64,000 nt of DNA from a virus, in the IMG/VR virus record IMGVR_UViG_3300020193_000003. The stretch is one strand, 5' to 3'. Of this stretch, positions 16,101-57,136 are shown one piece after another. Each line of letters starts with the position of its first letter. Within the stretch, counting starts at the first letter, position 1. The notes below the pieces were generated by a model that made no database searches, was not told the origin of the DNA, and worked only from the letters and a program-made list of their open reading frames with translations. The translations under genes and the position numbers were made by a program.

Positions 16101-17281
16101 GGGCGAGGGCGGAGTACCTTTCCGACTCCGTCCTCAACGCGGACCAAGTAAACGAGGCGATCCTGTTCGGAAATGTCATGCTCGTGGGCCCAAAATTGCC
16201 CCAGGACCTGTGGGACATCCCGCAGGTCGGCACCTCCTTGTACCTCGACCCGTTCAGCTACTTCAAGAACTATTCCAACTTCCTCAAGGCCGTGATCGAC
16301 GCGTTGCCGGAGCAGGTCAGATCCAGGCTGGGGGGCGGTCCCGACGACCGTGATGACGCCCAACGGTACTGGGGGGACACCTCGCTCTTCGAGGGCATCA
16401 TAATCAGGGAAGACGACGACATCTCCAGAAGGTTCGCCCCCATGATCAGGAAGCAGGCGGGAATAGTGTTGGACCACGCCAGGCGACACGGCGAGCTGAC
16501 GAGGAAGTGGGCGCAAACCGCCTACGACTTGATGAAGGAGGCTGGCCTGACGGACGCAGAGGTGGCTTTCGTTGTCAACGAACACTGGACGAAAGCATCA
16601 ACGTTCAAACTCGCCACGGTGCAACCGGGGAACGTGCTGGGTCACGCGGCGAGGCTGGGCGTGAAGGCGTTCTCCTCGAGGTACTCGCCGATAAGCCGGG
16701 CCATCACCAAGCGCATCGAAGCCGTCCAATCCGGGGGCCTCCGCGAGGAAGAGGATTTCGGCCTGCACGAGTTCTTCCACCACTACCTGGGCCAGGGTTT
16801 CACCAGGCACGGGGAGTACGTGGCGTTCAGGGGTCCGGCCGATCTGATCGATTCCTACCACGGGCACATGCAGTGGGCCTGGAACGACACCGGTCAGCTT
16901 GGGATGTTCGTCTCCAGGATCATGACGCAGGAGTTCGGCCGCGGCAAGACCGACGAGCCGGAGTTCGGGTATTCGCGCACACTCCATGACGCCATCGGCA
17001 GGGCCATCTACGACAGGCTGAAGGAGATGCTCTCCTCGGCCGAGGACAGGCGAAAAATAATGGATCAGGTGTTCCCGGAATTCCACGGGTCGCCCAGCGA
17101 GGACGAGGCGAAGATCAAGGCGCTGATCCGAAGGCAGTTCGCAGGGCGAGACCTTGAAAGGGTCCGCCAATTTGCGGATTTGATGCCCGTCCTCAGACTG
17201 CTCACGGTGCAGGACCTGCTGGTGCCGAAGATGTACTACCCCTACGGGGGAACGAGTAAAATAATCGGGGGGAGCAACTGA
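10193..17281 (+). CDS. Giant polyprotein-like effector protein (2362 aa): shared tag, ART-like, OGFr-like, HTH array, R-S-E ART-like, DUF4314-like, SLOG-like, HExxH domain
   Basis: Long ORF. Linkers GPEAGM 11378, DGEAGM 12581, 14021 and 14777, DGEAAM 15257. Motifs LYHAT...GL, HYDWWAYPID, VYRG...SWSTD...EEEII, FVVGDMPGVD, HEFFH. Confidence 0.85.
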   Translation: MARLERHLRKSPGEKSLGPTVGGAPRNLNPFTARDADLDMVVLEGIATVNFGRGVPDPTPGGAAETPSAPRLRSPLYATNEDFAVAAMSGPNRRPSISEEKDPGDVRNPDGHFPRQAGPMWRDTSFTALHLAPRERRGTSPASVNTYLHAEWTEPYWDAVRDDTGIWNSPPPPEMEVERAIYDAMKRETIEVGGYNVPFPQHPKESDYDQYTDSTGATVRHLTATRSFPFRNRENPRWTDGHPLYHATPTGALPRIVAEGLVAGTDRQLWFGASPTVWNEQFPHNAARQLKSPIKGMSFLRISPTQTMNERLSRLAKVSDVDRATVPGPLAIDSAGNLIGPRDSWAQIAVGLLSDALWFNDIKIPTENIEVLSQTGEWIPLYRTDLSDVVADPTSGPEAGMAKEKNRGIRRILASITNGKHGDDEGADEQKPASKPPAEVPVVAQIPNPEPRIKYSDSYGGDDLIKNEQRIVRIDHEGLVAAGRWKDIHGDHYDWWAYPIDRGSGQYGEAFNVAGEPLRRLREDPEFLASLAREIEIQALALGWSLYDQDWVEKLDWENGQDWRRAYPTRLWKATRSAQIFGLQREFESMLALHDSLAAGGVRFNHEDYWESPGTVDDVPSLGKSWKERQEEWRQRYPASDATSWTSPHRPLPQGPKRGSDDSQMTLLEEDRVWDAYDSYTTPIFPVVSDAEELADILSEPDEMIEFGYPYERIDKETRQLIADDIFFAVSLLMDGEFPDEEFTDRLESAEQMRRYADGQEGLYPEDRDILYALADALENPVSLYEDIGYESTDSPDGEAGMARRFRRLDEEPDYSDMSLSDTEIQNFIESEADEVTDDLIFGREVSRAFAQEEDEPIPRSVIPVRQISIPTLEEIPEDLKQSYIKLWAGGGSFVAINRQLGISNHDGAAIQTALLRSGEILPRTKRTSGDSLRLTPEDERVFVEWSNEGADMDLLTSVFGLTAGQTAEIAADLRSRGLIRRRFQKNFFTDSERDAFATIVKEELAKGRGIWPRSVLRAQRELGWSKQRAQAMLLWYKTQVKFGLMPGIKTQLSDSDMMRFAARWNDGVPEEQLAREFNVAEGSVKWLASKARKRGMRLKRRNSTDLSATDGLRRSPSLSREWLLGVENGTTSGGYQEFMEGMQKRAVALYRDGRTYGQIAKELGITGADAKYLVDRAATSGEKSPRRRGPKSKVAAALGITVDELVERMAARYNEGKTGAEMATEFGTTIGNLNHFLRVAGKRGLLKLRTRRPKTSVKRNVTGASSRKTRPIDGSDGEAGMSGPDSADLPDGIDGELEDHVYEDPVFGLSIKHPLFFWFAPITPEVVDLINASFAKKRASADEALRQKNWGRYIYLHERPYRIDAFEDVMDELTDQEYWSRLSDIWVDSENIGAQPDRWRNLLLSDRGSRESFMTEDERAEFAALQPRFTVYRGYSENDQEEFGMSWSTDAGVAEWFARRFAREDEKIFMEEMEVSKDDVFAYLTRRGEEEIILDMRTAAGGTASRRELPRKPKTRIPTRSRKLTPPDGEAGMSRTTERGDLVRLGRNSNYPSGLQPGSLGRVARVGRDGTISVEIEGELIKLTPGEDHFLVIPRQFDVLYELTDNDGNVIYLPVEDVTYPRLTSAREEAAKAGYRETGIIRGNMRTFFDDATGTYKTERTEFEVIGAQNIRPETTAPVTRQSTDTPDGEAAMSSQKIPKFNGGHSSKGRGTPSGDGKDLAMRDVADSAIVELANDERSSSRTTLETLGSYRAGSMVVMLARNGELRGIPLRDETIQAITKAHDDGAMFVVGDMPGVDSQFVEFLDKIGADYTIYHAGSSPRFRPQPPDARGDAPSELLARVTDEDAQLNLLYSVPGVAASVRMRSTDGAPVAPGKNAIMKPYLLAPHIDVNGLDASDPAIQSLSPALKAAGLGTYKVTGHSTPKVQGPVVKEFADRLIGPSAVADAVLGTFPTADEMLTIYAVNALIRARAEYLSDSVLNADQVNEAILFGNVMLVGPKLPQDLWDIPQVGTSLYLDPFSYFKNYSNFLKAVIDALPEQVRSRLGGGPDDRDDAQRYWGDTSLFEGIIIREDDDISRRFAPMIRKQAGIVLDHARRHGELTRKWAQTAYDLMKEAGLTDAEVAFVVNEHWTKASTFKLATVQPGNVLGHAARLGVKAFSSRYSPISRAITKRIEAVQSGGLREEEDFGLHEFFHHYLGQGFTRHGEYVAFRGPADLIDSYHGHMQWAWNDTGQLGMFVSRIMTQEFGRGKTDEPEFGYSRTLHDAIGRAIYDRLKEMLSSAEDRRKIMDQVFPEFHGSPSEDEAKIKALIRRQFAGRDLERVRQFADLMPVLRLLTVQDLLVPKMYYPYGGTSKIIGGSN

Positions 17282-17484
17282 TGGAACCGAACAAACCGAC
17301 CGACGCGACGCCGATCCTGAGGGTCGAGATTCCCGCCGCCAAACTCGACGCCATCGGCAGGGCGCTGGCCGGTCCTGATCCGCAGGACGACGACGGGTCG
17401 CACGCCGAGGCTCAGGCGGAGTGGGACATGATAGTTCGCGAGAGGAGCCCGAGGACGACAAGCTACGGCGGTGCCAGTAGCTAA
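17281..17484 (+). CDS. Small acidic protein (67 aa), translationally coupled to the upstream giant gene
   Basis: TGATG stop/start overlap with GGGGAG upstream. Confidence 0.65.
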   Translation: MEPNKPTDATPILRVEIPAAKLDAIGRALAGPDPQDDDGSHAEAQAEWDMIVRERSPRTTSYGGASS

Positions 17485-17496
17485 GAAATATACGTC

Positions 17497-56887: not shown

Positions 56888-56932
56888 CCTTGCCACCGAA
56901 CCCGGACCGGAAAGATACACTGGAGGACCGAG

Positions 56933-57136
56933 ATGAGCGACAAGATTGCGGACAGGCCTAGGGCCGGGGCTGGTTTGTCGGCCTGGGAGGCAATACAGTT
57001 GTGCGCCATCAACCAACTGCCGCTGTCGCACTACGGGCTGTCCGACACGCCAGAAAATAGGAAAACGGTTGACAAACTGCGCGACGAGTACGACGACATG
57101 GAGCGGCGCGGACTGATAATCGAAATAGCGCAGTAA
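56933..57136 (+). CDS. Small protein (67 aa) after the zeta-like kinase; candidate antitoxin or partner
   Basis: TACACT-GGAGG-ACCGAG-ATG gives a possible own -10 box and a Shine-Dalgarno. Confidence 0.7.
   Translation: MSDKIADRPRAGAGLSAWEAIQLCAINQLPLSHYGLSDTPENRKTVDKLRDEYDDMERRGLIIEIAQ

Follow-up and report, generated by a model that had tools for sequence, protein, structure and literature searches.

This study concerns a 64,000-nucleotide stretch of viral DNA (IMG/VR virus record IMGVR_UViG_3300020193_000003; the whole stretch is called the window hereafter), in which five large genes, D, E, F, H and J, are each followed by an open reading frame (ORF) of small size, s1 to s5 respectively (Table 1). 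We found that two of these small ORFs, s2 and s5, travel with the enzyme module that ends the gene upstream of them, a zincin-like module in gene E and a zeta/AvrRxo1-type kinase in gene J. Such joint travel, seen across distant phages, is what a dedicated neutraliser or chaperone would be expected to show. We propose, at roughly even odds (about 0.5), that s2 and s5 are dedicated partners of these terminal modules, and we infer that they most likely silence the enzyme in the cell that produces it. The sequence-only reading of this DNA had interpreted all five pairs as toxin and immunity genes. That interpretation is partly supported, strongly for s2, well for s5 and weakly for s1, s3 and s4. 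Its expectation that gene ends (tips) and small ORFs co-vary among relatives holds for s2, which is present in 8/8 cases with its module and absent together with it in four genomes, and for s5, which is found with the kinase only, and with one kinase subtype; the tips upstream of s1, s3 and s4 never vary. A small ORF placed after a large gene is a common arrangement in phages; the part that goes beyond chance is the co-variation of s2 and s5, not the arrangement alone.

Syntenic comparisons were made with G001, an IMG/VR contig sharing about 94% DNA identity with the window, and with five assembled contigs, G002-G006. Between the window and G001, a clean replacement was found at positions 26234-28407, starting from the last linker of gene E and comprising the last E module and s2. 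In G001, G002 and G004, gene E ends with a different module of 563 amino acids (aa), and an ATGA overlap leads straight into gene F, with no small ORF. In G005, E ends after a module of the HELNH type, and there too a small ORF is lacking. Neither the HEYAH module nor s2 occurs in these four genomes; both are present in the more distant G003 and in the metagenome contig L153. An exhaustive profile-free search returned about 30 representative homologues of the E module, most of them lying at the C-terminus of proteins of 620-1200 aa that open with a conserved tag. For the module and s2, scans of IMG/VR with single sequences found one sibling lineage only, alignments being needed for more: alignment-based scans of IMG/VR and of JGI metagenomes yielded five further lineages (L141/L157, L155/L156, L158/L159, L142-L145 and L143), with 29-32% module identity. 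In all five, stand-alone module proteins of 832-1202 aa are each followed, with an ATGA overlap, by a 74-80-aa s2 homologue of the pattern E-x-W-Y-[KR]-[IV] ... L-x-P-x-E-W ... I-x-D-x-N-x-x-E-[WL]-R-K. Altogether, an s2 homologue lies directly downstream in 8/8 distinct module-bearing sequences from three gene architectures, a count that covers the sequences whose gene context was seen, the other E-module homologues (about 20) lying outside it. The dN/dS ratio (non-synonymous over synonymous substitution rate) of s2 is 0.25, and a scan of bacterial genomes returned nothing for the E module. The E module and s2 are thus, on strong evidence, a conserved two-gene unit, gained and lost together, and found either closing a giant polyprotein or in the form of a stand-alone effector. 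As for the alternative 563-aa module (L005:16467-18155 in G001), it has only a weak C-terminal helix-turn-helix match, and shares about 25% identity with an internal module of gene A.

The sequence-only reading had called the E module a peptidase from its HEYAH motif. Residues H277, E278, H281 and H284 are invariant among homologues, and AlphaFold modelled most of the module with confidence. With this model, Foldseek gave nothing significant. VIA-align placed the catalytic part of anthrax lethal factor on top (Z 9.5, root mean square deviation (rmsd) 9.8, 220 aligned residues), followed by PPEP-2 (Z 5.9), then PepO, thermolysin and others, almost all of them zinc metallopeptidases. The moderate Z-scores together with the invariant HExxHxxH motif support a zincin-like fold for the predicted structure rather than a specific peptidase family.

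We next turn to s5 and the kinase module of gene J. Using a profile of the s5 family on 80 capsid-anchored loci, we found s5 in 26 of them, always between the kinase-bearing gene and the capsid gene. It is present in 26/34 kinase-bearing loci versus 0/46 kinase-less loci, these counts being phylogenetically non-independent. Its presence also follows a subtype of the kinase: the D[ST]xGQ motif is found in 24/25 s5-positive loci versus 0/7 kinase-positive, s5-negative loci, and this includes the sister pair L068/L067. In two loci (L034 and L040), the kinase is a separate gene of 326-333 aa, and s5 follows it directly. In a large protein database, s5 has homologues in 72 clusters, all unnamed, and its dN/dS is 0.14-0.23. 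Three helices are predicted for it, with a pLDDT (predicted local distance difference test score) of 82-93 in a model fused to the kinase module. Good evidence makes s5 a candidate partner of the kinase. In L067, which is without s5, a 199-aa ORF (9232-9831) separates the kinase-bearing gene from the capsid gene; judged by eye only, it looks like a lytic transglycosylase (…LLQINGINYD…).

That gene J ends with a zeta-like kinase, as had been read from the sequence, was confirmed both by the match to the Pfam family Zeta_toxin and by the fold. The AlphaFold model, built on 42 homologous rows, has a pLDDT of 87 (mostly 82-97 across the module). Foldseek and VIA-align matched it to AvrRxo1-ORF1 with Z 16.4-16.7, rmsd 3.2-3.5 and 237-243 aligned residues (for 4z8u_A, Z 16.7, rmsd 3.2, 237 residues), and to PezT and zeta with Z 15.1-15.3 (for 1gvn_B, Z 15.2). 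PDB sequence and profile searches with the module gave nothing useful. The Walker A, D-x-D and H-x-ES motifs are kept, GGxxGxGK[ST] and DxDxxK being conserved in 26 homologues. Each of the three kinases, AvrRxo1, PezT and zeta, has a small cognate protein that neutralises it. For s5 itself, the only Pfam match at E up to 1 was weak and unrelated, and neither its sequence nor its motifs showed a detectable resemblance to epsilon, PezA or Arc1.

All five small ORFs, with the junctions read from the sequence, were borne out. They are acidic, with isoelectric points of 4.4-4.9 for all five, and mutually unrelated (best BLASTP E-value among pairs, 4.3), again as had been noted. Their GC content at third codon positions (GC3), 0.62-0.81, is at the level of the neighbouring genes, and a Shine-Dalgarno-like site of the GGAGG/GGGGGG type lies 6-12 nucleotides (nt) upstream of each. 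Among G001-G005, s1, s3, s4 and s5 are found in all, s2 in G003 only. At larger distances their dN/dS is 0.14-0.75, which, together with the syntenic homologues, indicates that s1-s5 are protein-coding genes. As a side observation, s2 and s5 share the reading frame of the giant gene upstream, separated from it by one stop and by 4 and 15 codons (28095-28112 and 56885-56935), the spacer after E reading stop-GGGT. Read-through or frameshifting of the giant proteins into the small ORFs was considered and rejected: the frame relation varies among relatives, so that the shared frame is probably due to chance.

For s1, s3 and s4, the upstream ends fared less uniformly. At the end of gene D, the motif HEFFHxxLGQGFTRHGEY is invariant in six genomes; the HEFFH domain comes down to this strictly conserved motif, with no Pfam match to the tip and nothing useful in PDB sequence and profile searches. 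The HEMGH motif had been placed in a C-terminal tip of gene F; it was found in the middle of the protein instead. An ADP-ribosyltransferase (ART)-like tip had been proposed for gene H, the C-terminal part of which holds a conserved block IRRGI...GGxGxNFA...GDIILAAVPKTAR. The part 'IRRGI ... GxNFA ... ILAAVPKTAR' is compatible with ART strands 1 and 2, with no evident Glu motif, and neither Pfam (E up to 5), PDB profiles nor the ESM Atlas (score 0.77) lent the assignment any support. The small ORF s1 evolves fast: its positional homologues in G001-G005 range from 93 to 36% identity, none being detectable in G005, and its dN/dS is 0.3-0.5 at distance. Homologues of s3 were found in G001-G005; those of s4 belong to the same clade only, with no family or fold lead from Pfam, PHROGs or the ESM Atlas. 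IMG/VR scans with s4, gene F and the D tip reached no carrier outside this clade, apart from an internal motif match.

Substitution rates relative to G001 suggest a link of another kind. Gene F has a whole-gene dN/dS of about 1 (1.0-1.2 across most of it), and the last 350 residues of H (38660-39712) reach 1.5-2.0, versus 0.0-0.25 for the genes neighbouring F and the H tip, which points to probable local diversifying or relaxed evolution. As for non-synonymous rates (dN), s1 has 0.040, its upstream end 0.038 and the downstream gene 0.021; s3 has 0.125, for 0.07-0.14 in gene F and 0.007 in the next gene; s4 has 0.064, for 0.064 upstream and 0.016 downstream. The dN of s5 (0.033) is between those of its upstream end (0.054) and of the capsid gene (0.019). 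Thus s1, s3 and s4 appear to share the raised rate of the upstream end rather than the rate of the downstream gene, which is suggestive only. In the distant complete genome G006, giant genes are also followed by ATGA-coupled ORFs, of 107, 129, 74 and 59 aa, among which a relationship to a small ORF of the window is recognisable for the 59-aa one alone, which is an s5 homologue. It may be that s1, s3 and s4 do the same job as s2 and s5.

If s2 and s5 neutralise the enzymes upstream of them, translational coupling would provide the partner in roughly equal amounts, right as the C-terminal module leaves the ribosome. The partner would then bind this module and keep a putatively toxic enzyme silent in the producing cell. 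The cargo would next be packaged and cleaved, the partner presumably being left out of the virion, so that in the next host the enzyme would be active without its partner.

Several observations weigh against this proposal. Fused AlphaFold models of module and small ORF gave no usable interface read-out; in the read-through fusion model for s2, built on a shallow alignment, the s2 part has a pLDDT below 50 and holds no docking information. No small ORF matched any Pfam or PHROGs family, epsilon and Imm families included, and the Arc1 motif KExFD(x25-27)[YL]ExxYY is absent from the s5 sequence. Seven kinase-bearing loci are without s5, and three s5-negative kinase loci carry an unrelated small ORF at its position. 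The kinase module is non-terminal in at least 8 loci, where s5 nonetheless adjoins the capsid gene. The shared ancestry of the s5 loci has to be set against their counts: a tree-based paired test left four informative pairs, in which s5 was concordant in about 3 and never opposite, and was not significant. For s1, s3 and s4, the tips are invariant in the only clade that carries them, so that they allow no co-variation test. Finally, the internal HELNH module, the NUDIX module and the exonuclease module of gene A have no small ORF nearby, and neither has the HELNH-type module that ends E in one relative. Given these enzyme-like modules, it is not the rule that every enzyme has an inhibitor. The three unrelated ORFs at the s5 position (in L028, L056 and L083) are helical and acidic, form a family of their own in one capsid clade, and were also considered as distant s5 relatives; this was rejected (hhalign probability 0.3%).

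The main rival to neutralisation is that these small acidic proteins are chaperones or packaging adaptors, comparable to those of type III secretion, which would maintain the giant cargo's end in a soluble or unfolded state and assist its loading into the procapsid, leaving catalysis unblocked. The data equally allow such a chaperone or loading role, since co-variation fits any specific binding partner, and not an inhibitor alone. As secretion chaperones are, the proteins are small, acidic and encoded beside their client; Arc1 was itself first described as a chaperone (PMC4938570), and G006 shows the pattern of giant gene and coupled small ORF whatever the sequence. However, the cargo genes A, C and G have no partner, nor has E when it ends in the alternative module, so that packaging as such does not require a partner. 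Moreover, packaging appears tied to shared N-terminal tags, whereas the partners are tied to C-terminal modules. On the whole we consider a chaperone role without inhibition rather unlikely.

Alternatively, the adjacency of s1, s3 and s4, and possibly of s5, may be incidental, these being ordinary conserved small genes of the head module with roles of their own (e.g. in assembly or as part of the virion), whose synteny with their neighbours is inherited. Phage genomes abound in small ORFs, s1, s3 and s4 are confined to one clade, and a further small ORF, s0, which resembles a sixth case, is in fact part of the next gene; s5, for its part, always abuts the capsid gene, even with a non-terminal kinase. 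Against this, plain synteny does not explain s2, s5 is missing from all 46 related kinase-less head modules and tracks the kinase subtype, and the dN of s1, s3 and s4 goes with that of the upstream end. We take incidental synteny as a serious alternative for s1, s3 and s4, while giving it, as an account of the small ORFs, a low probability. That the small ORFs are unexpressed chance frames would be conceivable in a window of 62% GC with 378 ORFs of at least 50 aa, but they are conserved as ORFs, with dN/dS below 1, across genomes whose synonymous divergence is saturated, each has gene-level GC3 and a ribosome-binding site, and s5 has its 72 homologous clusters. Conservation refutes this last explanation.

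How does the locus compare with known systems? Polymorphic toxin systems (reportedly the subject of Zhang et al. 2012) and MuF toxins combine a conserved front with a variable C-terminal enzyme module, an organisation found here for gene E only. Four of the five tips are, unlike those of polymorphic toxins, not polymorphic in the clade, the ends of D, F, H and J being conserved in all six genomes. In MuF toxin genes, a small unannotated ORF lies immediately downstream in 89% of cases (Jamet et al. 2017, PMC5576092). As in these, a module and its small ORF are exchanged as a cassette (the end of E with s2), and the locus adjoins the portal and head genes. In contrast, no MuF-type domain (PF04233, PF06152 or related) was found in a Pfam scan of all large proteins of the window, the carriers are multi-module proteins of 0.9-5.2 thousand amino acids with protease-type linkers rather than two-part toxins, and the phage is apparently virulent. 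Five related records, of which one is complete and has terminal repeats, yielded no tyrosine integrase, so that protection of a lysogen is an unlikely purpose for the small partner genes.

The end of gene J resembles AvrRxo1-Arc1, epsilon/zeta and PezAT in that its terminal module has the same kinase fold (Z 15-17), with the P-loop and Asp motifs. In avrRxo1:arc1, too, a small helical protein is encoded downstream of the kinase, Arc1 being predicted to consist of 3-4 short helices (PMC4938570). The likeness of s5 to Arc1, epsilon and PezA is limited to size and predicted three-helix make-up. Unlike AvrRxo1, zeta and PezT, the kinase here ends a 5243-aa virion-cargo protein, in which NUDIX and other modules precede it. 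Polyvalent proteins of phages and conjugative elements likewise unite numerous unrelated effector domains, among them zincin metallopeptidase and zeta-like kinase domains, in a single giant virion-associated protein, with predicted proteolytic release (Iyer et al. 2017, PMC5512222). The term 'immunity protein' is not used in that survey (PMC5512222), and what this locus adds to polyvalent proteins is dedicated partner genes after the terminal module. Distinctive here are giant cargo carriers without MuF, punctuated by linkers and headed by a prohead protease, with partners of no known family.

The window represents the block running from portal to capsid in a large lake phage, whose own contig is 142 kb. 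This follows from G001, where the portal gene lies upstream of gene A and gene A starts with an S78 prohead protease. The major capsid protein, used to anchor the locus comparisons, has 285 related stretches in IMG/VR; the closest named capsids, at about 45% identity, are those of Brevibacterium and Gordonia phages, and tail-sheath and tail-tube genes are present in Brevibacterium phage Cantare. An s5 homologue (P0057) was found on a 137-kb contig binned into an Ilumatobacteraceae metagenome-assembled genome; with the 62% GC and the actinophage-like capsids, this gives a lead to the host group. The D-x-E-A-G-M linker occurs in 5 copies in D, 5 in E and 12 in J, and the large insertions and deletions between the window and G001 have both ends at such linkers (window positions 12587, 14783-15263, 22809-25086 and 26172). 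This indicates that the giant genes are arrays of exchangeable modules, gained, lost or swapped whole.

Table 1. Features of the locus in 5' to 3' order, with the small ORFs found at the s5 position of other loci in the last three lines.
Feature	Position	Strand	Length	Remarks
Gene A		+	last 2087 residues in the window	
Gene B		+	614 aa	
s0	8129-8332	+	67 aa	basic, Cys-rich (KYHC...PCGSCVNHKGC); after gene B
Gene C		+	619 aa	
Gene D		+	2362 aa	
Last module of D	15284..17281	+		after the final D-x-E-A-A-M linker; HEFFH from nt 16766
s1	17281-17484	+	67 aa	ATG overlaps TGA of gene D (CTGATGG)
Gene E		+	3531 aa	
Last module of E	26193..28097	+	634 aa	HEYAHLEH (HExxHxxH), zincin-like
s2	28110-28316	+	68 aa	12 nt downstream of gene E
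Gene F	28407..31157	+	916 aa	N-terminal tag at residues 40-90; HEMGH at residue 451 (nt 29757)
s3	31154-31522	+	122 aa	acidic; ATGA overlap with gene F
191-aa gene		+	191 aa	
Gene G		+	697 aa	
Gene H		+	1849 aa	
C-terminal part of H	38210..39712	+	500 residues	claimed ART-like tip
s4	39709-40149	+	146 aa	acidic, core well conserved; ATGA overlap with gene H
Gene I		+	315 aa	
Gene J		+	5243 aa	
NUDIX module of J	55292..55684	+		PF00293, E 2.6e-9; two linker-bounded modules upstream of the kinase
Last module of J	55952..56887	+		zeta/AvrRxo1-type P-loop kinase; PF06414, E 3e-19
s5	56933-57136	+	67 aa	45 nt downstream of gene J
Major capsid protein	57183..58586	+		HK97-type; PF05065, E 6e-44
Small ORF in L028	2542-2781		68-82 aa (range for the three)	after kinase gene
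Small ORF in L056	9666-9914			after kinase gene
Small ORF in L083	9657-9863			after kinase gene

The small ORF s0, 98% identical in G001 and G002, was considered as a sixth pair with gene B and rejected: in L142/L144 it is fused to the N-terminus of a 518-aa homologue of gene C (L142:449-2005). Together, s0 and gene C look like a split or fused head-module protein of zinc-ribbon type. Two N-terminal sequences were also observed. A conserved tag of about 90 aa opens the stand-alone effectors P0008-P0018 (M-x-SS..DAN.RV..YRKSV ... GKLRCPPGTPNANQFTD.QMSNCMVPG), and the short motif of gene F listed in Table 1 recurs close to the start of F, H and J homologues. The tag and the motif are each a candidate for a capsid-targeting signal.

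Phages that inject enzymes make them late, in a cell that is still finishing virions, and how they avoid harming their own production is known mainly for the MuF toxins of temperate phages. The locus described here provides two concrete pairs of enzyme and partner, from uncultured freshwater phages of an abundant family, and it demonstrates the movement of such a pair, as one unit, between gene architectures that differ widely. Were the partners inhibitors, they would represent new protein families switching off a zincin-like peptidase and a zeta/AvrRxo1-type kinase. Very tentatively, a design rule may be imagined, by which each protease-processed cargo polyprotein would put its most dangerous enzyme last, neutralised by a coupled small gene, the cassettes of enzyme and neutraliser being traded between phages, either as the last part of a giant polyprotein or as a tagged effector standing alone. 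Should this doubtful rule prove true, it would give virulent phages a system of self-protection against the effectors that their virions deliver, with s2 and s5 as two new inhibitor families, the former for the zincin-like peptidase and the latter for the AvrRxo1/zeta-type kinase.

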